The position numbers were made by a program, and so were the translations under genes. The notes below the pieces were generated by a model. The model saw only the letters and a program-made list of their open reading frames with translations, was not told the origin of the DNA and searched no databases. A DNA stretch of 60,860 nucleotides from Alphaproteobacteria bacterium (GTDB lineage Archaea; Nanobdellota; Nanobdellia; Woesearchaeales; UBA9642): the NCBI GenBank assembly GCA_035626895.1, contig DASPMU010000060.1, forward strand, positions 1 to 60,860, written 5' to 3'. Each line of letters opens with the position of its first letter. The first letter of the stretch is position 1. Below, piece by piece: positions 1,289-56,294 of the stretch.

Positions 1289-2410
1289 TTACAATATCTT
1301 CTTCTCGTAAAGCAAAGCCCTGATTGTTTCTTTGTCAAGTAGGGGGGCATTCTTTGAAGTGTAATCTCTTTGTTTTGCTAAGGTCTCTGAATTCTCTGAT
1401 CTATCTCTTGAGAGATGATTCTTCCCATAGTGTGCCTGTATAGAATTATACAATACAAATACATCTTCTTTCTCTAATGCATAGTTTGATTCTTCAGGAG
1501 TTAGTAATATCTCATCAGTCTTCTCTCCAGGCCTTGTTCCGATATATTCTATCTTGATGTCTTGTGGCTTAAAGCCATGCTTTGGAGCAAGCTCTTGTAT
1601 CATTACTTCTGCAAGATCAACTATCTTTAGAGCGTCCATCTTTAGAATAAATATTTCTCCTGACTCTGTCATCTGAGCGCTCTTTAGGACTAGTTTTACA
1701 GCGTCATCTATGCTCATGAAAAATCTAGTCATGTCTTTGTGAGTTACTGTTACAGGGCCGCCTTGGGCTATTTGTTTTTTGAATATCGGGATAATTGAGC
1801 CTACTGAATTTAGAACGTTTCCAAACCTTACGCAACAGAAATTACACTCGATAAGTCCTGGATTGTTAGTTATTAATTTCTCCATCATCAGCTTTGTTGC
1901 TCCAAGAGTGCTTATAGGATTTGCAGCCTTGTCAGTTGAAATCCCGACTAATACTTTGACATTATGATGTGTTGCAGCGTCAATTAAATTCTGCGTTCCG
2001 ATGATGTTTGTATTTACTGCCTCAAACGGATTATATTCGCAGAAAGGTACATGCTTCAATGCTGCTGCATGGAAGATTATGTCGCATCCTTCAACAGCTC
2101 TCATTACCCTGTTTCGGTCCCTTATATCTCCGACGAGATTTCGTATCTTATCTGATTGGACAGTCTGGTTGAAATTGAAATGTGCTGTCTCGCTGTTATC
2201 CAATATTCTTATTCTCTTAGGATTGAATGCCAAAAGCTGCCGAACTATTTCTGAGCCAATAGATCCGCATCCACCAGTCACTAAGATATCTTTTCCTTCA
2301 AAGAAATTTGAAACTGGAATAGTTGCATTATTAGCTGATACACTAACTGTATTATTCACAGTATTTTTTGTTTCTAAGTTAATCATATTTAAGTTACCCA
2401 TAATATACAC
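1289..2410 (-). CDS. CapD/PglF/WbpM-type NDP-HexNAc 4,6-dehydratase (extended SDR)
   Basis: Rossmann motif GKDILVTGGCGSIGSEI. CapD-family catalytic stretch STLGATKLMMEKL, with Leu at the position that is Tyr in PseB/FlaA1 and Met in PglF. First gene of the aminosugar block next to a DegT aminotransferase. Confidence 0.75.
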   Translation of the reverse strand: MYIMGNLNMINLETKNTVNNTVSVSANNATIPVSNFFEGKDILVTGGCGSIGSEIVRQLLAFNPKRIRILDNSETAHFNFNQTVQSDKIRNLVGDIRDRNRVMRAVEGCDIIFHAAALKHVPFCEYNPFEAVNTNIIGTQNLIDAATHHNVKVLVGISTDKAANPISTLGATKLMMEKLITNNPGLIECNFCCVRFGNVLNSVGSIIPIFKKQIAQGGPVTVTHKDMTRFFMSIDDAVKLVLKSAQMTESGEIFILKMDALKIVDLAEVMIQELAPKHGFKPQDIKIEYIGTRPGEKTDEILLTPEESNYALEKEDVFVLYNSIQAHYGKNHLSRDRSENSETLAKQRDYTSKNAPLLDKETIRALLYEKKIL

Positions 2411-2432: not shown

Positions 2433-3608
2433 TCAGACTATATATTCCTCGTCTTTATCAGTATTAGATTCTATTTTTGATTTTGATTTCATAAATTTAT
2501 TTTGGATGTCAGCGATATTTTTGCAAACATACTCTATATCTTCAATGCTCATATTTGTATGGAATGGAATTGCAAGAGTCGTCTTTGAAATTTTCTCGCA
2601 TACAGGATAATCCCCTTCCTTGAAACCCATTTCCTTGTAGAATTTCATCAAATGTATTGGAGAGAAATAAGGGGAGCATGCAATGCCTCTTGCGATCAAT
2701 TCTTTCATGAAATCTTCCCTGTTTCCATTTTCAATTTGAATTATGTAAACAAACCATGATACTTTATGTTTATCATCTGAAAATATAGGGATTTTAATTC
2801 CTGGAACATCTTTTAATCTTTTTGTATATTCTTCTGCGACTTTAGTTCTCATATCAAGGATTTTATCGATTTTCTTGAGCTGTGATATTCCAAGAGCGCA
2901 ATTTATATCGCTTAGCCTGTAATTGTATCCTATCCGAACATGAGTATGCCAGTCGCTTGTTATTCCTCTTCCCTGATTTCTGTAGCTCTTGCATAATTCA
3001 TAGATTTTTTCATTGTTAGTAACAAGCATTCCTCCTTCTCCTGTTGTCATTTGCTTGTTTGGATAAAATGCAAATATACCGCAATCTCCGAATGTTCCGA
3101 CTTGCCTGTTATTGTACAAGGCTCCGATTGCTTCAGCTGTATCTTCTATAACATGCAGATTATGTTTTTTTGCTATTGCAAGTATTTCATCTTTCTCGCA
3201 AGGTTTTCCAAAAATATCAACAGGAATTATCGCCTTTGTTTTTGGAGTGATTTTCTCTTCAATTTTTTTTGGATCAATGTTAAATGTTACTGGATCGATG
3301 TCTACAAATACTGGAGTTGCTCCCTCGAACAATACGCAGTTGCTTGACGCTACAAAACTGAACGGAACAACAATCACTTCATCTCCAGGACCTATGCCTA
3401 AGGCTTTTACAGCAAGATGGAGCGCGCTTGTTCCTGAATTCAATGCAACAGCATACTTTGTTCCGACGTATTCTGCAAATTTCTCCTCGAACTCGACAAG
3501 CTTTGGTCCAAGGCTTAATGTATTAGTCTTAAGGACTTCAACTACTGCATTGATGTCGTCCTCTCCAATGTATGGAGCTGATAGGTTGATTTTTCTAAAC
3601 TCACTCAT
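2433..3608 (-). CDS. DegT/DnrJ/EryC1-family PLP-dependent sugar aminotransferase (PglE/LegC/PseC-like)
   Basis: NSGTSALHLAVKALGIGPGDEVIV and the PLP-lysine context FAFYPNKQMTTGEGGM. 4-nt overlap with the upstream gene. Confidence 0.85.
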   Translation of the reverse strand: MSEFRKINLSAPYIGEDDINAVVEVLKTNTLSLGPKLVEFEEKFAEYVGTKYAVALNSGTSALHLAVKALGIGPGDEVIVVPFSFVASSNCVLFEGATPVFVDIDPVTFNIDPKKIEEKITPKTKAIIPVDIFGKPCEKDEILAIAKKHNLHVIEDTAEAIGALYNNRQVGTFGDCGIFAFYPNKQMTTGEGGMLVTNNEKIYELCKSYRNQGRGITSDWHTHVRIGYNYRLSDINCALGISQLKKIDKILDMRTKVAEEYTKRLKDVPGIKIPIFSDDKHKVSWFVYIIQIENGNREDFMKELIARGIACSPYFSPIHLMKFYKEMGFKEGDYPVCEKISKTTLAIPFHTNMSIEDIEYVCKNIADIQNKFMKSKSKIESNTDKDEEYIV

Positions 3609-6253
3609 TTTTTGTCCCTCTGATTAGTTATTTCATTAATTAGTTCATTTTGTAAATTTCTTGCGACTAGAAGATTATCAATTAACATTGCAACAGTCAT
3701 AGGCCCAACGCCGCCAGGAACAGGAGTTATGTAAGATGCTTTTTTTGATGCTTGCTCAAAATCTACATCCCCGACTATTTTTCCGCTGGATTCAGATGTA
3801 CCGGCGTCAATAACTACAGCGCCTTCTTTGACCATGCCCGAAGTTATTATATTAGGAATTCCGGCTGCAGATATCAATATATCAGCTTTGAGGCATTCTT
3901 CTTTCAAATTAGTAGTCTTGCTGTTGCAAACAACAGGATTAATTCCCCTGTTCTTTAGCATTACAGATAATGGTTTTCCAACGAGTTTTCCGTTTCCAAC
4001 AAGAACAACGTTCTTTCCTTTCATGTCAATATTATACGATTCTAAAATCTTAAGTATTCCTTTCGGGGTGCATGGAACAAGCTTTTCATTCCCTAGCTCC
4101 ATTTCCTGTATATTATAGTTAGTCAAGCTATCAACATCTTTTATAGGAATCACTGAATTAATTACTCTATCATAATCCACATTTTTAGGGAGAGGCAATT
4201 GCACGATTATTCCATTTATTGATTCATCGTCATTTAACTCAGCTATTTTAGAAACAATTTTCTCTTCATCTGCTTCAAGCCTCAATATTTCAAAGTCTAC
4301 GCCTATTGATTCACATTTCTTTGCCTTGCTCTTTATGTATGATTCTGAAACTGAATTCTCTCCTGCAAGAACTATTGCAAGCTTTAGTCTTATATTTTTT
4401 GATTTTATTTCATTGCCTACTTCATTTATTACTTTCTCTGCAAGCTTTTTGCCGTCAAGGATTATTGGATTTAGCGATTTTCCTGTAGAATTGATTATTT
4501 CAGAAGATTTGTGAAGTATTGCTTTATCGTAGCTGAATTCTTTTGATAGATCTATAACTTCGTTTCTTAAGTTATCTAAGTTTTCTTTCTTGATCAATGC
4601 CCTTGCCATGAACCGGGCAATTTTTTTCATCTCTTCTTCTTTCATGCCTCTTGTTGTCATTGCAGGAGTTCCTATCCTGATGCCGCTCGGATCAAGCGGA
4701 CTTCTTGGATCGTAAGGAATCATGTTTCTGTTGACTGTTATGTTTATTGAATCAAGTATTTCCTCTGCCTGTTTTCCTGTATAGCCAGTATTTGTCAAAT
4801 CGATGAGCATCAAATGATTATCTGAGCCATTAGTTACAACTTTGAATCCCTGAAGGATAAGTTCGTCAGCAAATGCTTTCGTATTCTTGACTATTTGAGA
4901 TGCATATTCCCTGAATTTGCTCGTGGAAGCTTCTTTTAGCGCGATTGCAATTCCTGCTGTCGTATTATTATGCGGTCCGCCCTGCATTCCAGGGAATACT
5001 GCCTTGTCAATCTTGTCAGCAAATTTCTGCTTGCACATAATCATTGCGCCTCTTGGGCCTCTTAATGTCTTATGAGTTGTTGTTGTTACAACATCAGTGA
5101 ATGGGAAAGGCGATGGATGGTTGCCAGTTGCTACAAGCCCTGAAATATGCGAGATGTCAGCTAGATGTATTGCCCCGACTTCCTCAGCTATCTCCTGGAA
5201 TTTCTTGAAATCAATAGTTCGCGGATATGCTGTTGCTCCCGAAACAATTATTGCAGGCTTTTCTTTCAATGCAATCTGCCTTATCTCCTCGTAATCAAGC
5301 TGCATCGTGTCTTTATTCACGCCGTAATTTACTATAGTATAATTTTTCCCTGAGAAATTTACCTTATGACCATGAGTCAAATGTCCTCCCTGAGCAAGGC
5401 TTAAAGATAAAATCTTATCGCCATTTTTTATCAATGCAGAATAAACCTCAATATTTGCAGGAGAGCCGGAATAAGGCTGCACGTTTGCATGCTCTGCGCC
5501 GAATAATTTCTTTGCGCGATCGATTGCAATATTTTCTATCTCATCGATATATTTATTTCCGCCGTAATATCTCTTTCCAGGATATCCTTCAGAATACTTA
5601 CTATTCAGAATTGATCCCAAAGCGCTAAGTACATCTGAGCTTGCATAATTTTCAGATGGGATAAGATTGATACTCTCATTTACTCTTTCGTTTTCTTTCT
5701 TTATCAAGTCGAAGATTTCTTTAGAAGCATTTTCTGAAATATTTTCTTTGCTTTTTTCGTGCTCTAGAGTTATTTCATCAATTCTCTTTATCAATTTAAC
5801 AGGAGAGCCAAAAGCTAGATATCCGTCAGGAATATCTTTGTTTACAAATGAATGCGCTCCAACTATTGCATTCTCTCCGATGTGAACTCCAGGCATTATC
5901 GTGCTGTGAGAGCCGACGCAGGAATTCTTTCCTATATGAACTTTTCCTGCAAAACCTTTTCCTGTCCTTGGATCAGGAATTGTGCTGATGCTGTAGATCA
6001 CGCAGTGGCTTCCTATCTGGACATTGTCCTCGATTTCAACGCCGTAATGCGCAAATATTGCAGTGTATGCTCCAATGTCGGTGTATTTTCCTAATTTGAA
6101 TTTATCAGGAGAGTATACTGTCCAGTTGTAGATTGTCGGCTTGCCATGGATTATTTCAGGCATCTTCCATTCTTTTCCAGCAGATTTGTCGAATCTTTTA
6201 TCTAAGTCGATATCCACAAGTTCATGTCCTGGTTTTTGATCCCTGTTTACCAT
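3605..6253 (-). CDS. Three-domain fusion: hexapeptide-repeat acyltransferase + serine hydroxymethyltransferase (GlyA-like) + methylene-THF dehydrogenase/cyclohydrolase (FolD-like)
   Basis: One uninterrupted 882-aa ORF. aa ~1-160 (nt 5774-6253): left-handed beta-helix repeats IGAYTAIFAHYGVEIEDNVQIGSHCVIY...IGKNSCVGSHSTIMPGVHIGENAIVGAHSFV. aa ~176-577 (nt 4523-5728): SHMT signatures INLIPSENYASSDVL, YPGKRYYGG, VVTTTTHKTLRGPRG. aa ~596-866 (nt 3656-4468): FolD signatures GIIVQLPLPKNVD, CTPKGI, VVLVGNGKLVGKP, ITPVPGGVGPMTVAML. Confidence 0.8.
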   Translation of the reverse strand: MVNRDQKPGHELVDIDLDKRFDKSAGKEWKMPEIIHGKPTIYNWTVYSPDKFKLGKYTDIGAYTAIFAHYGVEIEDNVQIGSHCVIYSISTIPDPRTGKGFAGKVHIGKNSCVGSHSTIMPGVHIGENAIVGAHSFVNKDIPDGYLAFGSPVKLIKRIDEITLEHEKSKENISENASKEIFDLIKKENERVNESINLIPSENYASSDVLSALGSILNSKYSEGYPGKRYYGGNKYIDEIENIAIDRAKKLFGAEHANVQPYSGSPANIEVYSALIKNGDKILSLSLAQGGHLTHGHKVNFSGKNYTIVNYGVNKDTMQLDYEEIRQIALKEKPAIIVSGATAYPRTIDFKKFQEIAEEVGAIHLADISHISGLVATGNHPSPFPFTDVVTTTTHKTLRGPRGAMIMCKQKFADKIDKAVFPGMQGGPHNNTTAGIAIALKEASTSKFREYASQIVKNTKAFADELILQGFKVVTNGSDNHLMLIDLTNTGYTGKQAEEILDSINITVNRNMIPYDPRSPLDPSGIRIGTPAMTTRGMKEEEMKKIARFMARALIKKENLDNLRNEVIDLSKEFSYDKAILHKSSEIINSTGKSLNPIILDGKKLAEKVINEVGNEIKSKNIRLKLAIVLAGENSVSESYIKSKAKKCESIGVDFEILRLEADEEKIVSKIAELNDDESINGIIVQLPLPKNVDYDRVINSVIPIKDVDSLTNYNIQEMELGNEKLVPCTPKGILKILESYNIDMKGKNVVLVGNGKLVGKPLSVMLKNRGINPVVCNSKTTNLKEECLKADILISAAGIPNIITSGMVKEGAVVIDAGTSESSGKIVGDVDFEQASKKASYITPVPGGVGPMTVAMLIDNLLVARNLQNELINEITNQRDKK

Positions 6254-6297
6254 TTTATTTGATTAATTTATTGTGATTAATTTTTTTATTTAATTAT

Positions 6298-7440
6298 TCA
6301 ATAAGAGTTAGTCTTATGCAATAATTTTTTATCTATGACAATGTCAGATAATATATTTGCGATTCTTTTTCCTGCCGTTCCATCACCATAAAGATTGACA
6401 GACTTCATGTTTTTCTTAAATTCATCCGATAAAGCTTTTTCTATTGCAAGCAATATTTGATTTCTATCGTGGCCTGCATCAATTACATTATCACTTCTAT
6501 CCCTGCCATTTTGCCTTATTCCAATATTTACAACAGGAATTTTAAATGATGCACTTTCAGTCATGCCGCTGCTTGAATTTCCTACGAGTACAGCTGCATA
6601 CTTCATAAGGCTCAGATATTCTTTATGTGAAAGATTGGTGTAGGATATTACATTATCAAGATCTTCATATTTTTTTATTTTTTCAATAATTGCCCGTCCG
6701 CCGCTATCAGAATTAGGATAAATAATTATTGCCTGCATTCCAAGAAGCTTGATTGCTTCAAGAGTTTCAGTTATTTGATTTACAGACTCGCTTGGCTGAG
6801 TAGATACCGGATGCTGCACTACAAGAAGGTATTTTTCTTCAAGTTTGGCATTTATGTTTGATTCTAATTCTTCTTTTGAAAATAATTCTTCGTTTAATAT
6901 CTCATCAATTGCTGGAGAACCTACATAATGGATACGCCAAAAATCTTCTCCCATTTTTTTTATTCTCTCTTCACTATAAGGAGTTGCAGGGAAATGAATA
7001 TGAGCAAATTTAGTTATTGCATGCCTTGCAGATTCATCAAGTCCTGCCATTGTCCTATCTCCTCCATGAAGATGAGCTACAGGAATATTTAGATATGACG
7101 CACTAATTGCTGCAGCAAGAGCTTCAGTTCTATCTCCAAGAATTAAAACTACATCAGGCTGCAATTTTATGAAAGCTTGAGATAACCCTTCAATTCCTTT
7201 TGCTATTGCAATATTCATGCCATGGCCAGTATCATCTTCAGAATCAGTTTTTACTGAATCATCGATCTTAAATCCATCCTTTATTATTTCCTGATAGCTG
7301 TTTCCATGCCTCTCTGAGAGATGCATTCCTGTAGCTATTATCTGCAATTGAAGATTTTCTGATTCCTTGATTGCTCTCATTACAGGCCTGAGTAATCCGT
7401 ACTCTGCTCTTGTTCCTGTAACCACGCATATTTTTCTCAT
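6298..7440 (-). CDS. Hydrolysing UDP-HexNAc 2-epimerase (NeuC/LegG-like)
   Basis: N-terminus MRKICVVTGTRAEYGLLRPVM and GDRTEALAAAISASYLNIPVAHLHGGD are typical of the NeuC branch of the 2-epimerase family. Confidence 0.75.
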   Translation of the reverse strand: MRKICVVTGTRAEYGLLRPVMRAIKESENLQLQIIATGMHLSERHGNSYQEIIKDGFKIDDSVKTDSEDDTGHGMNIAIAKGIEGLSQAFIKLQPDVVLILGDRTEALAAAISASYLNIPVAHLHGGDRTMAGLDESARHAITKFAHIHFPATPYSEERIKKMGEDFWRIHYVGSPAIDEILNEELFSKEELESNINAKLEEKYLLVVQHPVSTQPSESVNQITETLEAIKLLGMQAIIIYPNSDSGGRAIIEKIKKYEDLDNVISYTNLSHKEYLSLMKYAAVLVGNSSSGMTESASFKIPVVNIGIRQNGRDRSDNVIDAGHDRNQILLAIEKALSDEFKKNMKSVNLYGDGTAGKRIANILSDIVIDKKLLHKTNSY

Positions 7441-7465
7441 TTTGTATTACACTGCTTAAAATTAT

Positions 7466-8287
7466 TTAAGCAGTCTCCTCGTTCTTTTCCTGATAATATT
7501 GATATAATGATTCGACGTTCCAGATTTTTATTTCCTGTCCGTCGGAACCAATCACGTATGCCCCGGCATAAGGCTTCGACAATGCCCGCACTTTTAATGC
7601 AGCATGCTCTAAGGATTCTTTTGATGGATCGATTTGATTGTTTTTTAGCGATAGCTTAGGGAAGTATGTTGCTTGCGAATCGTCCTGCTTGATTCTTGGA
7701 GCAGCCTTTTTAATAACTGCTGGAAGATAATTCCTGATTAATATTCTTCCTGCATCAATTACTTTGTTGTAAACATCCTGCGCATAATCTTTTTTTCTGT
7801 CAATTGTAAATGCCTGCTGGCCGATTATATCGCCTGAATCGACGCCGTCTTCAGCATAAAACATTGTAAGGCCAGTTGAGTTGAAATTTTCATCAAGTAT
7901 TGAATTTATTATTGGAGCAGGCCCCCTGCCTTTTGGGAGAAGAGTTGGGTGAAATCCTACAACACCGTCTTTTGGCCATTCAAGTATTTTTTTATCGAGC
8001 ATCTGTCTCCAGCCGCACATTATTACAACATCCGGATTAATTGATGATATTTTGTCAAAATCATTGTTGATATTTGTAACAGCGTAGGTTCTTATGCCAT
8101 ATTTTTTTCCTATTTCCTGCCATTTATCAAGACTAACTCCGTCGTACATCACAGTCTTTGCATCTTCATCTAATGTCACGATTGAATCTATTGTAACTCC
8201 GATGCTCAAGGATTCCTGCAATAGTTCATAGCCAAGCTTGTTAGCTGAAAGCCATACTATTTTGTAATTTTGATTTGTATCGTTCAT
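7466..8287 (-). CDS. 10-formyl-THF-dependent formyltransferase (Fmt/ArnA-N-like; probable sugar N-formyltransferase)
   Basis: Formyl_trans_N core VVIMCGWRQML...GFHPTLLPKGRGPAPI...GVDSGDIIGQ followed by a Formyl_trans_C-like tail. Sits inside an aminosugar operon. Confidence 0.7.
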   Translation of the reverse strand: MNDTNQNYKIVWLSANKLGYELLQESLSIGVTIDSIVTLDEDAKTVMYDGVSLDKWQEIGKKYGIRTYAVTNINNDFDKISSINPDVVIMCGWRQMLDKKILEWPKDGVVGFHPTLLPKGRGPAPIINSILDENFNSTGLTMFYAEDGVDSGDIIGQQAFTIDRKKDYAQDVYNKVIDAGRILIRNYLPAVIKKAAPRIKQDDSQATYFPKLSLKNNQIDPSKESLEHAALKVRALSKPYAGAYVIGSDGQEIKIWNVESLYQYYQEKNEETA

Positions 8288-8331
8288 TTTATTTTGTATT
8301 ATTTATTTTATCTTATTATTTTAATTCAGAT

Positions 8332-9063
8332 TTAAATCCCATAATCCCTGAATACTATTAATCCTTCAGCGTACTCTACGCAAATATCCATCCCGTATTT
8401 TCTGGCCTGTATTTCAAGTCCTTTTGCGCTTCTTGGATGAGGATATTCTTTTACTTCAGTGTCATAGCATAAGAATGCCCGGATTTTTTTATCGACATGA
8501 GATTTTTCAAGAGGAATATATTTTGTCGGCTTGAATCCGATTACTCCCCATTCTGTTTCTGAGACAGTGTCAAAACAGTATACCTTGATTTTCTTTTCCG
8601 CCTGGGGACGTGTTGCAACATTTACAGCCTCAAACACCAAGACGTGATCTTTATTTACATCGCCCCAATAATGAGTGTAGATTATGTCAGGATTAATTTT
8701 TGCTACGACCTGAGCAACTGCATTGTTCAATTCTCCATGAGCAAGAGTGTTCAACTTTACAGTAGGAAAACCAAGTTCAGCTCTTGAATTTATTTCCAAG
8801 ATTTTGTCAACATTTGCAGCGCATACTTTTTTCTTCTGAATATATTCTTCAGTCCATGGAGGAACAGTAGGCTTTGTTACAATGCAAATATGAACTTCGT
8901 GGCCTGCTTGTTTGTGCCTTGCAATTGTTCCGCCAATTCCAAGGACTTCGTCATCAGGATGCGCAGCTACAACTAAGACTTTTAATTTTCTGTCTGAAGC
9001 AGAAAATTGTCCATCGTTTAGAATCTTGATATCTCCATTGATCATATTATTTTCCCAATTCAT
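8332..9063 (-). CDS. PIG-L/LmbE-family N-acetyl-sugar deacetylase
   Basis: Family signature VLVVAAHPDDEVLGIGGTIARH near the N-terminus. 4-nt overlap with the upstream cytidylyltransferase gene. Confidence 0.75.
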   Translation of the reverse strand: MNWENNMINGDIKILNDGQFSASDRKLKVLVVAAHPDDEVLGIGGTIARHKQAGHEVHICIVTKPTVPPWTEEYIQKKKVCAANVDKILEINSRAELGFPTVKLNTLAHGELNNAVAQVVAKINPDIIYTHYWGDVNKDHVLVFEAVNVATRPQAEKKIKVYCFDTVSETEWGVIGFKPTKYIPLEKSHVDKKIRAFLCYDTEVKEYPHPRSAKGLEIQARKYGMDICVEYAEGLIVFRDYGI

Positions 9064-9938
9064 CCCTTGCTGTTTCCTGCCATCAAAACTTCTTTGTTTT
9101 TTGCAAAGAATTCAGCGACTAAAAAATCTTGGTAAGTATCAATATCTGAAGATAAAAACTCGCTCATTTCATATGCAACAGTCCTAGGAGGCTCAAATGT
9201 ATTCTCTTCATAGAACACATTTGTCTTGATCAAGTATATCGCGCCATTTAGAAGATAAGTCTTCGGGACATTTCCTAAAGTTCTCATGTATTTTCTTCCT
9301 CCAGGCGTGAAATAATTATGATAGAATCCAAAATCATCAATTGTGTTTGTATAATGAGGATCAAGCTTTGTCTGGACGACAGATACGCATGCATTTGCAT
9401 TCCTTGAAAACATTAATTCGCATGCATTGTCAATATCAGTGCTAGTTCTTAGAGGAGATGTTGCCTGTAAAAAACATATATAATCAGGATCATATCCATG
9501 CTCTTTGCTCATGAATTCTACAGCATGCTTTATTGTATCGACGCTTGTTGCAGTGTCAGTTGCAAGTTCAGCAGGTCTTTTGAAAGGAACTTCAGCGCCG
9601 TATCTTCTTGATACTTCTGCGATTTTATCGTCGTCAGTTGACACGATGACTCGGTCAATATATTTAGAATTTTTTGCGGCTTCAATAGTCCATGCAATCA
9701 TTGGCTTTCCATGAAACATCATGATGTTTTTCCCCGGCAATCTTTTCGATCCGCCTCGCGCAGGAATTATTGCAAGTATTTTTTTGCTTGCACTTAGCGG
9801 AAAATTCCCTGAAATCTCAGAAGAGCCTGCTGCTGGAGCAATTTTTTCTATTGCATCGTTGATTTCAACATAAGCAGATGCAGCCTTAGCTGCAATATTT
9901 TCAGAATTATTTGCCAGTTTATCGACCATATTAACCAT
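9060..9938 (-). CDS. CMP-nonulosonic acid synthetase (NeuA/LegF/PseF-type cytidylyltransferase) with ~60-aa N-terminal extension
   Basis: ILAIIPARGGSKRLPGKNI...IDRVIVSTDDDKIAEV...PFKRPAELATDTA matches acylneuraminate cytidylyltransferase signatures. The start codon choice is uncertain. Confidence 0.75.
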   Translation of the reverse strand: MVNMVDKLANNSENIAAKAASAYVEINDAIEKIAPAAGSSEISGNFPLSASKKILAIIPARGGSKRLPGKNIMMFHGKPMIAWTIEAAKNSKYIDRVIVSTDDDKIAEVSRRYGAEVPFKRPAELATDTATSVDTIKHAVEFMSKEHGYDPDYICFLQATSPLRTSTDIDNACELMFSRNANACVSVVQTKLDPHYTNTIDDFGFYHNYFTPGGRKYMRTLGNVPKTYLLNGAIYLIKTNVFYEENTFEPPRTVAYEMSEFLSSDIDTYQDFLVAEFFAKNKEVLMAGNSKG

Positions 9939-10032
9939 CTTTGTAGATTAAAATATCGTTTTATAAATCTTGTTAAAGAGTAGTCATTTTGTCCTCGATG
10001 ACTAGTAAAATTATCGTCTAAGAAATTTTGCA

Positions 10033-10800
10033 TTAAAATAGTCCCCTAATTGGGACGAAATTCTTTATTTTTTCTTTGATTTCAGAAACAGTAAGCGTTT
10101 TGTAATGAAGAACTGATGCAAGCGATACTGCGTCGACGCCTTTCTTGAATGCTTCCTCTATATGAGCAAGATTTCCTGCCCCGCCGCTTATTATCAAAGG
10201 AATTGTGCAAACTTTTGAAGCCTCGTCAATTAGTTCAGAGTCAAATCCTTTCTTCACGCCTTCGCAATCAATTGATGTCAATAAAATTTCTCCAGCGCCA
10301 AGCTTTATTGCTTCTTTTATCCATTCAATGACATCTTTGTGAGTTCTCTCCCTTCCGTTTTCAGTGTATGCTTCCCATTTTACAATGCCATGCTCTTCCC
10401 TGCGTTTTGCCTCGATTGACACGACGATGCACTGGCTTCCGAATCTTTCTGCAGCCTTTGTTATTATTTGCGGATTATTTATTGCCGCGGTATTGATTGC
10501 AACCTTATCAGCGCCGCATTTCAAAAGATCATTGATATCTTCAAGCGTTCGGATTCCGCCGCCGACAGTTATCGGGATGAAAATATCTTTAGTAGTCTTC
10601 TTTACGATTTCAACCAAGTTATCTCGCCCGTAAAGGCTTGCAACAGTATCGATATAGATTATTTCATCCGCGCCCTGCTCTTCGTATCTTTTTGCAAGTT
10701 CGTAGGGATTTCCAATTATCCTAAGTCCTTCAAGGTGAACGCCTTTGACGACGTTTGGGCCTTTTACATCAAGTCTTGCTATTATTCTTTTGCAGTGCAT
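10033..10800 (-). CDS. HisF-like cyclase subunit (WbuZ/AglZ-type, acetamidino-sugar formation)
   Basis: RIIARLDVKGPNVVKGV, GADKVAINTAA, GAGEILLTSIDCEGVKKGFD and PLIISGGAG give a HisF TIM-barrel. It is clustered with a HisH-like gene and a PP-loop amidotransferase rather than with his genes. Confidence 0.75.
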   Translation of the reverse strand: MHCKRIIARLDVKGPNVVKGVHLEGLRIIGNPYELAKRYEEQGADEIIYIDTVASLYGRDNLVEIVKKTTKDIFIPITVGGGIRTLEDINDLLKCGADKVAINTAAINNPQIITKAAERFGSQCIVVSIEAKRREEHGIVKWEAYTENGRERTHKDVIEWIKEAIKLGAGEILLTSIDCEGVKKGFDSELIDEASKVCTIPLIISGGAGNLAHIEEAFKKGVDAVSLASVLHYKTLTVSEIKEKIKNFVPIRGLF

Positions 10801-10846
10801 TTTGTTTGATATATCAACTGTTATTATTTGTATCTATTGTTATCAT

Positions 10847-12058
10847 CTACTGAACCTTATGCTTTAATACCCACTCGCCATCTTTCTTTTCCCAAAGATG
10901 AGGAGATCTCCAGCTATCAAGGCATTCATGGACTCTTGCTTCAGTAAGGCCAGTATATTCAAGGAAAGTCTTGTAGTGTTTTTTCGGGAATTCGCCATCA
11001 AATTTATTGACCAGTTTCACTCCTTCGTCCCGAGTTATGTGTCCATCCCTGATTTCGTGAGCGGCATCAGATGTTGCTCTTCCGATCCCGAATTTGATGT
11101 ATGAAAGATAATAATGAAATCCATCTATTTCATCATCAAGGCTTGCATATTTAGAATATGTTCCTTCACTTCTTCCGTCAGGATTTGCCTCAAAATTAGT
11201 ATGCTCGACTGCATAATAATAGTTCTCCTGAGGAACCCACTTCATGTAATATCCAAGGAAATGGCATTGTATTCCTACTTTTTTCATCTCTTCAACTGGC
11301 GGGGCCGTGTAGTAATGCAAGTCTTCATCCGTGAAGCCATACTCTTTCCAATAATGAACATCAATTCCGCTGAAATAATGTTTTGTCAGGTCGTCTTCAA
11401 CATTGTGAGATGGCTTGTCTTCGTTCTTTGAATCCCCGCCATACTCAACCTCGCCGTTTTCTCCGTACATGATTAACGGGATGTTGAATTTTGTTGCAAT
11501 CCTCATAGGAAAAGTTTTCTGGCCGTAGATGAACGGCTGGAATGGATCTCCTAGTATCTCAAATGCAAGCCTCGTTAATTTTCTATGAACTGCCCCGTTT
11601 GGAGTTCCCATGATATTATCAAATCCGCTGTGGATAAATCTTTGGAAATTTCTCCAGCCGATGTCAGAATATTTGTGAGGCGCCCATGTAACAGTTAGTG
11701 GATGCATGCCGTATTTAGTCTTTAGAATATGAGCTGTGATTGCGCTATCTTTTCCGCCGCTGCATGGGATTATTACGTCCCATGATCCGTCTTTGCTTCT
11801 ATGCTTGTCGCATAATGCCTGCAGTTCTTTTTCTCTTGCTTCCCAGTCAATTTTGTTTGCTTTCTTTTCAGCATACCTGCATGCGCTGCATATGCCTTCA
11901 GCATCGAATCTTATTCTCGGTCTTTGGTTTGAAATGACGCATTTCTTGCAGTACTTAACTTCAGTTGGCAAATTGTATTTCTTAACAACGTCTTTGTGTT
12001 CTATCACGACATCTTTTGTAAAATCAAATTCTATTTTTGGTAACTTAAAATCAGCCAT
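10847..12058 (-). CDS. N-acetyl-sugar amidotransferase (WbuX/PseA/AglX-type PP-loop enzyme)
   Basis: Cys-rich N-terminus CKKCVISNQRPRIRFDAEGICSAC and PP-loop IIPCSGGKDSA. Flanked by the HisF-like and HisH-like genes. Confidence 0.7.
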   Translation of the reverse strand: MADFKLPKIEFDFTKDVVIEHKDVVKKYNLPTEVKYCKKCVISNQRPRIRFDAEGICSACRYAEKKANKIDWEAREKELQALCDKHRSKDGSWDVIIPCSGGKDSAITAHILKTKYGMHPLTVTWAPHKYSDIGWRNFQRFIHSGFDNIMGTPNGAVHRKLTRLAFEILGDPFQPFIYGQKTFPMRIATKFNIPLIMYGENGEVEYGGDSKNEDKPSHNVEDDLTKHYFSGIDVHYWKEYGFTDEDLHYYTAPPVEEMKKVGIQCHFLGYYMKWVPQENYYYAVEHTNFEANPDGRSEGTYSKYASLDDEIDGFHYYLSYIKFGIGRATSDAAHEIRDGHITRDEGVKLVNKFDGEFPKKHYKTFLEYTGLTEARVHECLDSWRSPHLWEKKDGEWVLKHKVQ

Positions 12059-12130
12059 TTTATCAATCCTCGACTATTCAAAATTTTTTAATCAAATTTT
12101 ATTTTTAATATTTTTTCTTAATATATTATT

Positions 12131-12754
12131 TTAATTTTTATTTGTCAATTCATCATTGATCCATCTTCGGTAAAATTCTATTCCCCATTTCCCGCTTCTT
12201 TCAGGATGGAACTGGACTCCTATGACATTATCTTTTGCAACCCCGCTGCAGAAAGTTTCTCCATAATCAGATTCGAATAAAATTACGCTTTTATCTTCGG
12301 GCTTTGGATAGAATGAATGGACGAAATACGCGTAGCCATTGTTGAATTTGTCTTGATCATGATCTTGTGAAATTAGCTTCGGATTTTTTACATTATTCCA
12401 TCCAACATGAGGAACTTTTCCCCACTTGAATTTCACAACCTGTCCCTTGAACAATCCAAGGCCTTTTGCTCCAGGGCTTTCTTCGCTTGAATCAAACATT
12501 GCCTGAAATCCTAAACATACTCCAAGAAAAGGTTTGTTGTTATTGTATACTTGATTGTGTATTTCCTTGTCAAGGCCTTTTTCAGAAAGATTTTTCATCA
12601 TGTAGCCAAAAGCTCCAACGCCAGGCAAGACAATCCTATCAGCTTTTTTCAAATCCTCAGGATCAGAAGTAACAATAACGTCCTGCTTTAAGTGCTCAAG
12701 AATGCTTCGTACATTATGAATATTTCCCGCGCCATAGTCGATTATTGCTATCAT
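12131..12754 (-). CDS. HisH-like class-I glutamine amidotransferase subunit (WbuY/AglY-type)
   Basis: IAIIDYGAGNIHNV, LPGVGAFG, the catalytic Cys context FLGVCLGFQAMF, and GVQFHPERSG. Confidence 0.8.
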   Translation of the reverse strand: MIAIIDYGAGNIHNVRSILEHLKQDVIVTSDPEDLKKADRIVLPGVGAFGYMMKNLSEKGLDKEIHNQVYNNNKPFLGVCLGFQAMFDSSEESPGAKGLGLFKGQVVKFKWGKVPHVGWNNVKNPKLISQDHDQDKFNNGYAYFVHSFYPKPEDKSVILFESDYGETFCSGVAKDNVIGVQFHPERSGKWGIEFYRRWINDELTNKN

Positions 12755-12823
12755 GATGTATCAGTCCAAAATATTATTTATATGCTTTCTGTATTTCAAA
12801 TCAATATGTTCAATTATGACAAA

Positions 12824-14782
12824 TTATAAAAGTTTCTCTATCTGTTTTGCAACCCTGCTGGCGGCCTTGCCGTCGTTGCCATAATGCAGCCTATTTACGA
12901 AATGCTTGATGTTTTCCTTCATGTGTTTTTCGTAAACAGGATTCTTCAATTTATGCAGCGCGTCTTTAACATCTGAACCATCCGCAACTTCAATTACAGC
13001 TCCAGTGTCCTTGAATTTAATTCCATCAGGTTCAATATCATTATAAATTATCATCAAGACTATTTTTCCAAAAAGCATTGCTTCAAAGCCAGCTGTTGTG
13101 TTAAACATCAATACATAATCGGAGAAATTCAGCAAGCTGTAAGTGTCTGCTGCAGGCTCAACTATTATCAAGTTCTTAGGCCTGTTTTTGAATGAATTCA
13201 GGACTAACTCCAAGCTCTCGTTAGGATGAGGCTTGTAGACGAATAAATATTCCGAATTTTTTCTTGCAACATCAAGATAAATATTGAAATGATCAAGCAT
13301 GTTTGATGAAACAATAAGTATTTTCTTTCTTGGATCATTGAAGAAAGAATATTTCTTGACGAATTTTTCTCGATCGTAATGAGCATTGAAGATCCAATCA
13401 AATTTAGGACTGCCTGTGACCTTAACAACGTTTTCAGGATACGCGCAATATTTTACGAGAACATCTTTTGAATACTCGCTCCATTGGCAGCTGACATCCG
13501 GAAGAGGCCTCCAGGCTGGAGAATTTCTATCCATCGCAATCTTATTTTTGGTTGAAGTATGAAGGCATCCAGGATATATCTGTTCGTGCGAGAGGGCGAC
13601 AACACTTCGTTTTTTTCTCTTTGCGTTTGCATTCTTTTCAAGATTGTTGTGTATCATGAACGCTTTTCCAAGAGTGTTTTCTGCATGATCTATTACTATT
13701 GCCTTGTAATTTTCTTTTTCGTTTATTCTTGCAGCAATATTTTTCATGTCGCATGAAAGATAAGATAATGCATTGAATAATAGTTCAAGCCTTGGCCTGA
13801 TTAATTCATAATAATTATATCCATTGTACTTGAAACTTGCCTGGAATTTCGTCGTGTTTTTAAGTTCATTCCACCTGTTTTTTAGTTTCTTGAAGTCTTT
13901 GTCATTATTTCTAAAGTGTGTGTAAGTATAATAATCTCCTATATAAGATCCTTTCATGAATGCATATTTCTTTAGCAGCTTGATATTTTTTGATTGTATT
14001 GCTTCTTCGTAGAATAAAGTCTTGCTTGTTGTTTTCTTTTTCAGGTTTTTCATGACAGACCCAAACATCAGATTATCATCGAAATTCTTTCTCAAAAACC
14101 TTATATTTGCAAGGAAAAGTACATCTTCTTTAGAATCAGAGTTAGATTTCCCTAAAATTCTCCTGACAAGACCTAATGCATGCCTCAGGCCAAGCCTGCC
14201 TCTAAGAAGCAAATACATAGGAAAAGAATTTTCGTATATGAAACTTAATTTTTTGCTCAATGTCTTATTTTTTATAACGTGAAGCTTGAAGCCTTTCTCT
14301 TTTGCAATTATCTCTGCGCATTTGACAAAGGTATTCTCATAGAAATCCTCGACTTCAAGCGTCAATGTCTGGCCTTTTTTCAAATTCAGCGAATCAAGTA
14401 TTTCGATATAATTGTAAATTATCAAAGTCCCGGGAGATTTCTGGAAAAAATAATCATGCTGATAGAGTATCGGCATCAAAAGATCAGAATAATTGTATCC
14501 ATCGATTATGAAATTTTTTCTCATTGCATGAAGCAAATTACTATGCTGCAAGAGCATATCTGTTATATTAGAATAATAGCCATTGAACCAATGTATTTTT
14601 TTTGCGCTTACACTATCTTTGCCTTCGCGGCTATCTTTGCTTGGCTTTATCGTTATAGATTGATCCTTAAAATCCAGTTTTACATACATAAAATCACGCT
14701 TCATTCCAAAAGCAAGGATCGCTTTAAAAATATTAAGGATTATACGTCTAGAAGAAGAGAAAAACAATAAACTCCGTTTCAA
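12824..14782 (-). CDS. Large protein with a TagF/KpsS/polysialyltransferase-like GT-B C-terminal half; candidate nonulosonate (or other acidic sugar) transferase
   Basis: C-terminal region VKVTGSPKFDWIF...KILIVSSNM...LFVYKPHPNE...MFNTTAGFEAMLFGKIVL resembles the HP-motif GT-B transferases. I could not match the N-terminal ~380 aa to any family. The listed start is TTG; an in-frame ATG (MKRDFMYVKL) lies at 14704. Confidence 0.35.
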   Translation of the reverse strand: MKRSLLFFSSSRRIILNIFKAILAFGMKRDFMYVKLDFKDQSITIKPSKDSREGKDSVSAKKIHWFNGYYSNITDMLLQHSNLLHAMRKNFIIDGYNYSDLLMPILYQHDYFFQKSPGTLIIYNYIEILDSLNLKKGQTLTLEVEDFYENTFVKCAEIIAKEKGFKLHVIKNKTLSKKLSFIYENSFPMYLLLRGRLGLRHALGLVRRILGKSNSDSKEDVLFLANIRFLRKNFDDNLMFGSVMKNLKKKTTSKTLFYEEAIQSKNIKLLKKYAFMKGSYIGDYYTYTHFRNNDKDFKKLKNRWNELKNTTKFQASFKYNGYNYYELIRPRLELLFNALSYLSCDMKNIAARINEKENYKAIVIDHAENTLGKAFMIHNNLEKNANAKRKKRSVVALSHEQIYPGCLHTSTKNKIAMDRNSPAWRPLPDVSCQWSEYSKDVLVKYCAYPENVVKVTGSPKFDWIFNAHYDREKFVKKYSFFNDPRKKILIVSSNMLDHFNIYLDVARKNSEYLFVYKPHPNESLELVLNSFKNRPKNLIIVEPAADTYSLLNFSDYVLMFNTTAGFEAMLFGKIVLMIIYNDIEPDGIKFKDTGAVIEVADGSDVKDALHKLKNPVYEKHMKENIKHFVNRLHYGNDGKAASRVAKQIEKLL

Positions 14783-17475: not shown

Positions 17476-18657
17476 GTGTATTATTTGCAAGTACCATTTT
17501 TAGATTTAAAACAGCAGTATAATTCTTTAAAGAATGAGATAATTCCGGAGATAGAATCAGTTCTTGAAAATTCACAATTTATACTAGGACCAAAAGTTAT
17601 TGCATTTGAAGAAAATTTTGCAAAGTACTGCAACGTCAAGCACGCAATCGCGCTCAATAATGGAACTGAAGCTCTTGCTTTGGCTTTGATGGCTCTTGGC
17701 ATAAAGACGGGCGATGAAGTAATAATTCCTGCAAACACATTTGTTGCAACAGCTGAAGCAATAGTACAATGCGGCGCCGTGCCAGTTCTAGTCGACATTG
17801 ATCCTGAAAGCTATAACATCAATACAAAATTAATAGAATCAAAAATAACTTCTAAAACAAAGGCAATAATGCCAGTTCATCTTTACGGCCAAATGGCAGA
17901 TATGGATGAAATTCTATCTATTGCAAAAAAACACAATCTCTACGTAATTGAGGATGCATGCCAGGCTCACGGAGCAGAATATAAGGGAAAGAAAGCAGGA
18001 AGCCTTGGAATAATTGGATGCTTTAGCTTCTATCCGGGAAAAAACCTGGGCGCTTATGGAGAGGGCGGAGCATGCGTTACAAATTCAGATGAACTTGCAA
18101 GAAAAATTAAATTATTGCGCGAGCATGGTTCAGAGAAAAAATATTATCATGATATCGTAGGATACAATTACAGGATGCATGGGCTGCAGGGAGCAGTCCT
18201 TAATGTAAAACTGAAATATCTTGACAATTGGAATAATTCGCGAATCAAAAACGCAGGAATATACACTAAAAATCTTGAAGGCTTGAAAGGCTTGATTATT
18301 CCAAAAGCCGGGGCAAATAACAAGCATGTATTCCATCTTTATGTCGTGCAGCTCGCCCAGGCAGGAATTGACAGGGAAGAATTCATCGACAAGCTAAAGA
18401 AACAAGATATAACAGCATTGATACACTATCCTCTTCCGATACATTTGCAAAAAGGATACCAGTTCCTCGGATATAAAGAAGGAGATTTTCCAGTAACAGA
18501 ATCTGCAGCAAGGAGAATTGTTTCACTTCCAATGTATCCGGAGCTTTCAGAAGAACAAATACTTCATGTGTGTAATTCGATAAAGCATATCCTTGCTGAT
18601 ACAAAGACGCAAATTGACGGCGCGGATCAAAGTTATGACTACGAGGATGCTGAATAA
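17476..18657 (+). CDS. DegT/DnrJ/EryC1-family sugar aminotransferase (WbpE-like)
   Basis: NNGTEALALALMALGIKTGDEVIIP and the PLP-lysine context FSFYPGKNLGAYGEGGA. Followed by an oxidoreductase and an acetyltransferase, as in WbpB/E/D sets. GTG start. Confidence 0.85.
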   Translation: MYYLQVPFLDLKQQYNSLKNEIIPEIESVLENSQFILGPKVIAFEENFAKYCNVKHAIALNNGTEALALALMALGIKTGDEVIIPANTFVATAEAIVQCGAVPVLVDIDPESYNINTKLIESKITSKTKAIMPVHLYGQMADMDEILSIAKKHNLYVIEDACQAHGAEYKGKKAGSLGIIGCFSFYPGKNLGAYGEGGACVTNSDELARKIKLLREHGSEKKYYHDIVGYNYRMHGLQGAVLNVKLKYLDNWNNSRIKNAGIYTKNLEGLKGLIIPKAGANNKHVFHLYVVQLAQAGIDREEFIDKLKKQDITALIHYPLPIHLQKGYQFLGYKEGDFPVTESAARRIVSLPMYPELSEEQILHVCNSIKHILADTKTQIDGADQSYDYEDAE

Positions 18658-18658
18658 A

Positions 18659-19741
18659 ATGGAAACTACCAACACTTCAAATTCAAAAATAAGCAGTGAT
18701 AAGATAAGCATCGCAATAGTCGGCCTTGGATACTGGGGACCAAACCTGGTCAGAAATTTCGACAAAGTAAAAGATGTCGAGAAAGTATACATCTGCGATT
18801 TAAAGCAAGAAAGGCTTGATTCTATTAAGGCAATATATCCTAATACCATTGCAACTCGCGATTATAATGAGATTTTAGCAAACAAGGAAATAAAGGCAGT
18901 AGTAATTGCAACCCAGCCTGTTTCAACACATTACAAGCTTGCAAAGCTTGCTTTGGAAAATAGCAAGAATGTATTCCTCGAAAAGCCCATGACCGAATCA
19001 TCGCAGCAGGCTGTTGAGTTAATAGAACTTGCAAAGAAAAACAACCTGATAATACACGTCGATCATACATTCGAGTATTCTGCTCCTGTAAAAATGATAA
19101 AGCAATTAATCGACAGCGGAGAGATAGGAGAAATTTATTCCATAGAAATGCTTAGATTGAATCTTGGAATATTCCAGAATGATTTCAATGTAATCTGGGA
19201 CTTGTGCCCTCATGACTTTTCGATATTAAATTATTGGCTAAATACTGATCCTAAAGATCTCTACGCATCAGGAAGATGCCATATCAATCCGAAAATCGAA
19301 GATGACGCTCATCTGATTGTAAATTATAATGATAAGTTCAATGTTCATATCCATGTAAGCTGGCTAAATCCTCAGAAGGTCAGAAAGACTACAATTGTCG
19401 GCAGCAAGAAAATGATTGTATATGATGATGCTGATCCTATAGAAAAAATGAGGATATATGACAAAGGCGTGACTACTGGAAATGTCGAAGGGATAAACCA
19501 AGAATACGGGACTACAAATCCTAATGAATATACTTACAATTACCGGCATGGAGATATACTCATACCAAAAATAGATTTTACGGAGCCTCTCTTAGATGAA
19601 GCAATACATTTTGTTGATTGCATAAAGCGCGGGGTTAAAACAAAGACTCCCGGTGAATCAGGGCTAAGAGTAATTCGAATGATCGAGCATGCAGCAAAAT
19701 CCTTGAAAGAAGGAAGCAGGGTGAATTTCAATGCCAATTAA
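18659..19741 (+). CDS. Gfo/Idh/MocA-family NAD-dependent sugar oxidoreductase (WbpB-like 3-dehydrogenase)
   Basis: ISIAIVGLGYWGPNLVRNF Rossmann motif and the EKPM motif. The listed ORF starts at 18593 inside the previous gene. ATG at 18659 (METTN...), or at 18647, just after or overlapping the upstream stop, is more likely. Confidence 0.75.
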   Translation: METTNTSNSKISSDKISIAIVGLGYWGPNLVRNFDKVKDVEKVYICDLKQERLDSIKAIYPNTIATRDYNEILANKEIKAVVIATQPVSTHYKLAKLALENSKNVFLEKPMTESSQQAVELIELAKKNNLIIHVDHTFEYSAPVKMIKQLIDSGEIGEIYSIEMLRLNLGIFQNDFNVIWDLCPHDFSILNYWLNTDPKDLYASGRCHINPKIEDDAHLIVNYNDKFNVHIHVSWLNPQKVRKTTIVGSKKMIVYDDADPIEKMRIYDKGVTTGNVEGINQEYGTTNPNEYTYNYRHGDILIPKIDFTEPLLDEAIHFVDCIKRGVKTKTPGESGLRVIRMIEHAAKSLKEGSRVNFNAN

Positions 19742-56256: not shown

Positions 56257-56294
56257 GTTAATTATTTTTTATTTATTTCTATTGAATTATTGAT

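Follow-up and report, generated by a model that had tools for sequence, protein, structure and literature searches.

Why should a sugar-modifying enzyme be joined, in one open reading frame (ORF), to two enzymes of folate-dependent one-carbon metabolism? This question is raised by an ORF of 882 aa (3605..6253, minus strand, ATG start in the ORF list) on contig DASPMU010000060.1, whose 60,860 nucleotides were analysed as a whole and are referred to here as the window. An earlier note on this DNA, prepared from the sequence alone, had described the ORF as a fusion of a hexapeptide-repeat acyltransferase (HEX), a complete serine hydroxymethyltransferase (SHMT) and a complete FolD, and had proposed that it supplies 10-formyl-tetrahydrofolate (10-formyl-THF) to a formyltransferase (FT) encoded two genes upstream in the same operon, for the formylation of a sugar. 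The Pfam and NCBIfam searches agree with this description, including the domain boundaries, which were right to within a few residues, and the FT gene was found where it had been placed (7466..8287, minus strand). Folate genes were also found to be recurrently co-located and fused with genes of the same FT family. Our best explanation of the whole, which we hold to be probable, is that the ORF encodes a three-domain enzyme that belongs to a pathway for a nonulosonic acid (NulO) of the legionaminic type and would provide serine-fed 10-formyl-THF for the FT, probably in a DPANN-like archaeon.

Domains of the fusion and its presumed partner

The HEX domain occupies aa 1-160 (5774..6253, minus strand, as for all parts of the ORF). 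It was assigned as a left-handed beta-helix acyltransferase by alignment to stand-alone HEX genes and by a Pfam Hexapep match (PF00132, aa 105-138, 42.3 bits, cutoff 27), and its matches in the PDB were LacA/Maa-type and sugar N-acetyltransferases, with E values down to 6e-18. With the NeuD/PglD/VioB sugar N-acetyltransferase model TIGR03570 it scored below the cutoff (59.5 bits, cutoff 160.8), only its C-terminal repeats being matched; it belongs to a separate subfamily of about 133 aa, apart from the TIGR03570 family, and its orthologs start at approximately aa 17 of the fusion. A first linker (aa 161-175, 5729..5773) lies where the stand-alone HEX orthologs stop and the SHMT homologs begin.

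The SHMT domain (aa 176-577, 4523..5728) was matched by PF00464 at aa 176-549 with 534.1 bits (cutoff 27, E 2e-160), over profile positions 4-399 of 399, and by the NCBIfam model NF000586 at aa 178-574 with 581.8 bits, above the cutoff of 335. The translation of the fusion has no internal stop and contains the lysine context for pyridoxal phosphate (PLP), VVTTTTHKTLRGPRG, the PLP-lysine motif of the domain being TTTTHKTLRGPRG. The motifs T-T-T-T-H-K, SENY, YSEGYPGKRYYGG, SGSPAN, GGHLTHG, DISHISG and SGIRIGT are also intact; their roles in the active site are presumably those established for the Escherichia coli SHMT. The identity to bacterial-type SHMTs (57-65%) suggests that the enzyme acts with THF rather than with tetrahydromethanopterin.

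The second linker (aa 578-595, 4469..4522) was located by alignment to the separate SHMT and FolD genes of two related loci, L106 and L115, which are described below. It is followed by the FolD domain, a methylene-THF dehydrogenase / methenyl-THF cyclohydrolase (aa 596-868, 3650..4468), with both Pfam domains in the canonical order: THF_DHG_CYH (PF00763, aa 599-708, 105.2 bits, cutoff 32.8) and THF_DHG_CYH_C (PF02882, aa 712-865, 195 bits, cutoff 27). The FolD part aligned over the full length with the solved FolDs 3p2o and 1b0a, with 251 bits in the case of the Campylobacter jejuni enzyme (3p2o), and keeps the motifs Y-x-x-x-K (SESYIKSKAKKCE), VQLPLP, KDVDS and TPVPGGVGPMT. It failed the clade-specific NCBIfam equivalog cutoffs (best, 276.9 bits vs 437), and is full length but divergent from all the named FolD clades. 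The SHMT and FolD domains are both orthodox members of their families. In the AlphaFold2 monomer, the predicted local distance difference test (pLDDT) score exceeded 90 in the C-terminal half of SHMT and through most of FolD, fell below 50 at aa 163-177 and 580-595, and gave no more than moderate confidence in HEX and in the N-terminal half of SHMT; the two short linkers are accordingly low in pLDDT and are predicted to be disordered.

The FT of 273 aa, the presumed consumer of 10-formyl-THF, matched Formyl_trans_N (PF00551) with 64.5 bits (cutoff 26.1) and was far below the cutoffs (in brackets) of the named families: fmt 101.6 (201.5), PurN 49.4 (150.1) and ArnA 119.9 (777) bits. It belongs to a populous family of proteins of about 250 aa, whose source-named members are mostly from Woesearchaeota, Nanoarchaeota and other archaea, and in which His113 and Asp150 were invariant in 30 members. 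The window FT is of a G-F-H subfamily with the motif context GFHPTLLPxGRG, present in the window gene and in loci L086-L165. Some members of the family are themselves fused: P0297 is a NeuB-SAF-FT fusion, and P0304 combines an FT of the same family with another Formyl_trans_N domain, which is PurN-like and has the canonical N-x-H.

Folate genes in related cassettes and fusions elsewhere

A metagenome scan was performed with an alignment of the FT family, and the ORFs of the best 80 loci, many of them on short contigs, were searched with the window proteins. The gene order NeuB-PIGL-FT-NeuC-HEX-PseC-PseB is conserved among the loci as a cassette, to which a CMP-transferase and WbuX/HisHF may be added; PIGL was found in 59 of the 80, NeuC in 54, NeuB in 41, HEX in 33 and PseC in 27. 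In these cassettes a stand-alone HEX gene of about 133 aa is located between NeuC and PseC, the slot that the HEX domain of the fusion holds in the window, and the domain aligned over the full length with the stand-alone HEX proteins of L087, L090, L106, L115 and L152, with the conserved His motifs kept. The 120 best homologs of the HEX domain were all stand-alone proteins (124-155 aa).

Of the 80 loci, 8 have folate one-carbon genes inside the cassette; among the 30 loci of 10 kb or more, 6 do. With an assumed background of 2% for folD within 10 kb, the binomial p for 6/30 is ~2.5e-5, a value that is indicative only, the loci being phylogenetically non-independent. All eight folate loci encode FolD, five the 5-formyl-THF cyclo-ligase MTHFS, two SHMT and one FolC. 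L106 is the unfused counterpart of the window gene order, as it carries FT, NeuC, HEX, MTHFS, FolC, an opposite-strand queuosine-precursor transporter gene, SHMT, FolD, PseC and PseB (folate block, 9424-13979); its FolC matched TIGR01499 with 362 bits (cutoff 163) and its MTHFS scored 159 bits (cutoff 85). The transporter, a Vut_1 gene, was considered as a candidate folate transporter and rejected on the NCBIfam assignment, and it is not counted as folate evidence. In L135, a 547-aa FolD-FT fusion (9110-10753, plus strand) stands between PseB-like and NeuC-like genes and, as a Rosetta-stone fusion, directly connects this FT family with the synthesis of 10-formyl-THF. FolD-MTHFS fusions are directly upstream of the FT in L090 (8616-10028, plus strand) and L097 (2-676, plus strand). 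The order is NeuC-MTHFS-FolD-HEX-PseC in L087, and HEX, a second FT (12289-12987, plus strand), MTHFS, FolD and PseC in L152, while in L145 a second, canonical sugar FT (12552-13328, plus strand) takes the HEX position and is followed by FolD-PseC. In L115, FolD and SHMT adjoin the cassette on the other strand. The FT proteins of L087 and L152 bear the source names Woesearchaeota and Nanoarchaeota. Because both the placements and the fusion partners vary, the folate genes would have been recruited into the cassette repeatedly. Taken together, the eight loci, including the FolD-FT fusion, support the supply of 10-formyl-THF for sugar formylation that the earlier note had proposed.

The second FTs of L145 and L152 are of a different subfamily, the L145 copy having a weak, below-cutoff match to N_formyltrans_C. 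No HEX gene was detected in the L145 cassette, where the second FT is flanked by PIG-L and FolD and located just upstream of PseC. The presence of two FTs suggests that the NulOs of these cassettes may be formylated on both amines.

When a collection of 5.8 billion proteins was searched for homologs of the whole protein, only five SHMT/FolD fusions were found among the best matches, none of them with a Hexapep domain. These are P0001, a GATase/Peptidase_C26-FolD-SHMT protein (L002, 369-3074), P0002 (FolD-SHMT), P0006 (MTHFS-SHMT-FolD), P0008 (SHMT-FolD) and P0011 (FolD-SHMT), the last with ThyX as its neighbour, a housekeeping context. P0006 and P0001 each adjoin a Formyl_trans_N gene of another subfamily, the former among glycosyltransferases and a flippase, the latter beside a nucleotidyltransferase; these glycan-type surroundings give further support to sugar formylation. 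The SHMT and FolD of the window have their closest counterparts in P0001 and P0002, and because these two are fused in the opposite domain order, SHMT/FolD fusions would have arisen more than once. Peptidase_C26, the additional part of P0001, is a family that includes gamma-glutamyl hydrolases, so that a link to folate polyglutamates is conceivable. In uncultured lineages, SHMT was found fused with many partners, among them dihydrofolate reductase (DHFR), DHFR-thymidylate kinase, RpiB (with or without a low-molecular-weight phosphatase) and a Sua5-like protein, and one of the SHMT-DHFR matches bears the source name Woesearchaeota.

Neither another HEX-SHMT fusion nor another triple fusion was found among the best protein matches, in the GTDB scan or among the 120 HEX homologs. 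For the triple fusion, absence was judged by score ranking, and the fusion itself was not among the listed matches, so that there was no self-match control. A HMMER search of all the representatives returned single-domain SHMT matches only and is uninformative on architecture, as the known fusions are not representatives. The triple fusion appears to be unique to this organism and perhaps its close relatives, in line with the view of the earlier note that the arrangement is unusual.

The GTDB scan used one genome per species and tblastn, followed by ORF parsing. The tblastn matches covered aa 178-862 and had the look of an SHMT-FolD fusion common in the bacteria of the Candidate Phyla Radiation (CPR), but this was rejected, since ORF parsing resolved them into separate adjacent genes. 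Adjacent folD and glyA occur mostly in CPR/Patescibacteria, in either order, and often overlap in different frames. None of the 80 bacterial folD/glyA loci had a homolog of the window FT within 10 kb, and none had a complete NulO cassette. SHMT/FolD fusions are rare, while folD-glyA adjacency is common in reduced-genome bacteria, in agreement with a previous report (PMC11974145).

The presence of HEX in the fusion is most likely explained by the loss of stop codons and of intervening genes between operon neighbours, because its ortholog is a separate gene in the same slot and because in L106 and L152 HEX is followed by folate genes. The earlier note had seen a link between one-carbon metabolism and a sugar N-acyltransferase; the physical fusion is real, but, HEX being the ortholog of a gene that stands alone in this slot, it probably does not tie acetylation mechanistically to one-carbon metabolism. 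The fusion may still serve a function, for instance in a shared complex or by keeping expression stoichiometric.

Proposed pathway and its alternatives

The operon runs on the minus strand with its genes closely spaced (intergenic distances, -4 to 94 nt) and has the fusion in eighth place, in the order HisH-like, WbuX, HisF/WbuZ-like, CMP-transferase, PIG-L, FT, NeuC-type, fusion, PseC-like and PseB-like. The first three genes (10033..12754) would form a set of HisF/WbuZ-like, WbuX and HisH/WbuY-like proteins for the amidotransfer that converts N-acetyl to acetamidino groups (WbuX, 385.7 bits, cutoff 203.2). They are followed by a PseF/LegF-like CMP-nonulosonate cytidylyltransferase (9060..9938; CTP_transf_3, 102.9 bits), a PIG-L/LmbE-type de-N-acetylase identified by Pfam (8332..9063), which is the gene found with the FT in 59 of the 80 related loci, and, after the FT, a NeuC/LegG-type hydrolysing UDP-sugar 2-epimerase (6298..7440; TIGR03568, 452.3 bits, cutoff 235.9). 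Downstream of the fusion, Pfam and NCBIfam identified a PseC/LegC-like aminotransferase of the DegT family (2433..3608) and a PseB/PglF-like UDP-GlcNAc 4,6-dehydratase (1289..2410). NeuB is on the same contig, approximately 10 kb past the window start (L001, 19750-20925), so that NeuC/LegG, NeuB and the CMP-transferase are all in one cluster. Equivalog cutoffs (in brackets) were missed by PseB with 298 (408), PseC with 356 (424), PseF with 182 (206), LegC with 298 (420) and LegB with 73 (475) bits. From these assignments, the operon appears to encode a legionaminic-type NulO pathway with extra N-modification genes.

In such a pathway, HEX would act as the N-acetyltransferase of the 4-amino sugar, because its homologs hold the slot between NeuC and PseC in 33 of the 80 cassettes and the operon has no other acyltransferase. 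SHMT would convert serine and THF into glycine and 5,10-methylene-THF, from which FolD would produce 10-formyl-THF by oxidation and hydrolysis, the step that is required solely for formyl chemistry. The PIG-L deacetylase would expose an amino group on the sugar, and the FT would formylate the exposed amine with 10-formyl-THF, thereby regenerating THF. In this closed cycle a catalytic amount of folate would suffice, and serine would be the formyl donor for the sugar. All substrates in this scheme are inferred, and so are the position that would be formylated and the passage of 10-formyl-THF to its presumed consumer. In cultivated nanohaloarchaea, glyA is beside thyA and folD is present in one of the two strains (PMC10266531), a variable presence that fits an accessory FolD in DPANN.

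A bolder version, which we regard as speculative and rather doubtful, is that in this and related DPANN archaea folate one-carbon metabolism beyond methylene-THF serves mainly or only the formylation of a surface NulO, with the fusion as the core of a physical metabolon that hands 10-formyl-THF directly to the FT, so that serine would be the dedicated formyl donor of the cell-surface glycan. Such a metabolon would hold scarce scavenged folate and could possibly be a trimer of dimers, in which the beta-helix provides the threefold and SHMT/FolD the twofold contacts.

Could the triple ORF be an artefact, i.e., a chimeric assembly, or a frameshift made in sequencing, by which separate HEX, glyA and folD genes were joined? 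The source is a metagenome assembly, the exact protein is on record on a single 90.7-kb ENA contig (with a megahit-style name, k141), and the three genes are separate in the homologous locus L106. Even so, we consider an artefact very improbable. Contig L169 (6009 bp) of the Logan assembly SRR7004167, made by a different assembler, is 100% identical to window 4664-10672 and carries the HEX-SHMT junction within a 530-aa open partial ORF. The contig ends within the universal SHMT motif, between PSGIRIGTP and AMTTRG, short of the SHMT-FolD junction; an end in so conserved a motif is plausibly a graph break. At both junctions frame 0 alone is open, the other two being closed, and there is no homopolymer run; when the stand-alone orthologs were aligned, two clean end-to-end, in-frame joins through linkers of about 15 residues were seen. 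As the stop of the fusion, at the end of FolD, shares 4 nt with the start of the PseC-like gene, two in-frame joins would be required for a chimera. GC content is uniform, as is the skew, and SHMT-FolD fusions in the same order exist in P0006 and P0008. Furthermore, in a relative whose FT is 79% identical, NeuC is directly followed, where HEX is expected, by an ORF that runs off the contig end and is at least 256 aa long. This is too long for a stand-alone HEX, because HEX homologs do not exceed 155 aa, and the ORF of this relative (P0271) is likely a HEX fusion as well. Exact-protein look-ups returned no match for PseC or for the 535-aa ORF at 58531, and for PseB the same contig only. The junction stops and frameshifts of which the earlier note had been wary were not found, the HEX-SHMT junction being covered by the second assembly, and the ORF is confirmed as a genuine three-domain protein. 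Another contig of SRR7004167, L167, differed from the window by 1 nt in 9979; with L169 identical to the window, the population is nearly clonal across the two data sets.

Once the protein is accepted, its folate part could still be a general one-carbon unit for thymidylate, serine and glycine, placed in the operon by chance and fused to a neighbour, with no special relation to the FT. Such a housekeeping role finds support in the widespread adjacency of glyA and folD as housekeeping genes in reduced-genome CPR (PMC11974145), in the many partners that SHMT joins, such as DHFR, thymidylate kinase and RpiB, and in the position of P0011 beside ThyX. No purine genes, no fmt, no MTHFS and no second glyA or folD were found in the window or its flanks (approximately 77 kb of the 90.7-kb contig); as to other glyA/folD copies, which the earlier note had thought worth looking for, this answer holds for that part of the genome. 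On the other side, FolD, the formyl-specific step, recurs at varying positions of the NulO cassettes and in L135 is fused to the FT itself, whereas this FT was within 10 kb of none of the 80 bacterial folD/glyA loci. To our knowledge, archaea have no Fmt, and purine genes are absent near the fusion; the possibility raised in the earlier note, of a PurN-like FT accompanied by purine genes, finds no support, the FT scoring below the PurN and Fmt cutoffs and occurring in NulO cassettes. Nor is the architecture a common housekeeping one, which that note had also considered, since the fusions are rare, although P0011 does stand in such a context. We judge a purely housekeeping unit unlikely, and the two roles are in any case compatible, as a sole copy could do both. 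A different role for the module would be salvage, i.e., the recycling mainly of scavenged folates (5-formyl-THF) rather than of serine one-carbon units, with the FT as one of several consumers. The association of MTHFS with FolD in five of the eight folate loci and in P0006, the FolC of L106 and the scarcity of SHMT (two of the eight) would fit this role, but the window has SHMT and FolD without FolC and with no MTHFS gene anywhere in its length. MTHFS is a repair enzyme for 5-formyl-THF, a side product of SHMT, and its presence also fits a serine-driven cycle. The chance that salvage is the main function seems to us slim.

Several observations weigh against a serine-driven supply of 10-formyl-THF to the FT. 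The FT family is without the catalytic Asn of N-x-H that is common to all the characterised formyl-THF transferases, and has Gly, Ala or Ser instead in 75 of 77 sequences (G-F-H in 68, A/S-F-H in 7); the conserved N128 (in PIINSI) might substitute for it. In FolD, the dinucleotide-binding loop reads GNGKLVGKP, and the aligned loop of 3p2o GASNIVGRP. The canonical loop for the NADP 2'-phosphate is G-R-S-x-I-V-G-x-P, and its Arg-Ser is absent from the window FolD, while the FolDs of the cassettes vary at this site (HS, NS, RS, KG). Among genome representatives, the nearest relatives of the SHMT are from CPR bacteria (57-62% identity). The SHMT-FolD junction is covered by one assembly. Only 10-20% of the related cassettes hold folate genes, and a linked supply would therefore be optional. 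Finally, SHMT and FolD may be the sole copies of the genome and also serve thymidylate, serine and glycine metabolism.

The glycan island, significance and known systems

The operon is part of a glycan island of 60 kb that takes up the rest of the window as well and encodes glycosyltransferases, sugar dehydratases, methyltransferases for C and O positions, an amidotransferase resembling Asn synthase and an STT3/AglB oligosaccharyltransferase of 990 aa (36286-39258, plus strand), whose best solved relatives are eukaryotic STT3A/B and the C-terminal domains of archaeal AglB. Within the window, this STT3/AglB is the chief indication that the DNA is archaeal, and the source names borne by homologs of the FT point the same way. 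Beside the operon, a 652-aa protein (12824..14782, minus strand) is a candidate nonulosonate transferase; it has no Pfam match, and its C-terminal third resembles the BFO_1060 / TIGR04396 surface-carbohydrate proteins with scores below the curated cutoffs. Its paralogy with another 652-aa ORF (41945-43903) was rejected on comparison. At 17476-20195 (plus strand), genes for a DegT aminotransferase, an oxidoreductase (GFO_IDH_MocA) and a hexapeptide transferase of the NeuD/PglB type (154 aa) make up a trio resembling WbpE/WbpB/WbpD, which suggests a pathway for a 2,3-diacetamido sugar and would provide the island with a second acetyltransferase. The island also contains a transketolase split into an N-terminal part and a part with the pyrimidine-binding and C-terminal regions, and two sugar C-methyltransferase-type genes (Methyltransf_14), these genes being located at 55300-57206 (minus), 48683-50530 (minus) and 29536-30765 (plus strand). 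They may be involved in the synthesis of branched-chain or C-methylated sugars.

Rosetta-stone fusions and conserved neighbourhood provide a sequence-based link between folate and a large, uncharacterised FT subfamily without the canonical Asn, and suggest a purpose for FolD in reduced archaea that lack formyl-Met initiation and, apparently, folate-dependent purine synthesis. They point to a self-contained, serine-driven formylation system made of the fusion protein, the FT and catalytic THF, which could serve for the in vitro synthesis of N-formyl nonulosonic acids. These compounds, whose synthesis is difficult, matter in the recognition of archaeal and bacterial surfaces by viruses and hosts. 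The locus would also be an example of a glycan cluster with its own supply of a group donor, which is relevant to the metabolic reconstruction of DPANN and CPR from gene presence alone. Searches of the literature gave no report of folate genes associated with clusters for NulOs or polysaccharides; the parts belong to known families, and a cluster-encoded donor supply has analogues.

The closest archaeal system is that of Halorubrum sp. PV6, in which 5-N-formyl-legionaminic acid was demonstrated on the N-glycan and the cluster comprises legB, legC, legF, legG, the predicted formyltransferase HrrPV6_1050, neuD and legI (PMC6137143). As in the window, an archaeal NulO pathway has an FT beside a LegG/NeuC-type epimerase and a hexapeptide acetyltransferase; unlike the window, the cluster as published has no folate enzymes and no fusions, and tetrahydrofolate is not mentioned in the paper. 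The leg-like cluster of Ca. Kuenenia stuttgartiensis likewise has a deacetylase and formyltransferase pair between leg genes, and CMP-NulOs that bear both a formyl group and a free amine have been observed (SugarBase preprint, bioRxiv 10.64898/2026.04.20.719630), which supports an exchange of acetyl for formyl at the nucleotide-sugar level. This cluster is bacterial, unlike that of the window, and the preprint does not mention folate, FolD or SHMT.

Among single enzymes, PseJ (PDB 6ci2; cited in PMC11040635) is a formyltransferase that makes Pse5Ac7Fo. It is also a Formyl_trans_N enzyme of a NulO pathway, to which the window FT matched weakly (E 1.9e-8). PseJ replaces an N-acetyltransferase step, whereas in the window the FT has a deacetylase as its partner, HEX is kept and the FT is of a different subfamily (G-F-H). 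ArnA, the UDP-Ara4N formyltransferase / UDP-GlcA decarboxylase, ranked among the best matches of the FT in the PDB and NCBIfam and is likewise a fusion within a sugar N-formylation pathway. In ArnA, which has the canonical Asn-His-Asp where the window FT is without the Asn, the FT itself is fused and the 10-formyl-THF comes from general metabolism, whereas in the window the donor-making enzymes are fused.

Consecutive folate enzymes are also fused in bacterial FolD, in the eukaryotic C1-THF synthase (MTHFD1) and in SHMT-DHFR(-thymidylate kinase) proteins, the last of which serve thymidylate synthesis; unlike the fusion of the window, none of these is joined to a sugar-modifying enzyme or located in a glycan operon. 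The folD-glyA pairs of CPR are adjacent and provide the closest SHMTs among genome representatives, but their genes are separate and their context is presumably housekeeping. NodP and NodQ make 3'-phosphoadenosine 5'-phosphosulfate for the NodH sulfotransferase, and here, as in the window, a modification cluster carries its own donor-making enzymes, with the differences that the group is sulfate instead of formyl and that the proteins are unrelated.

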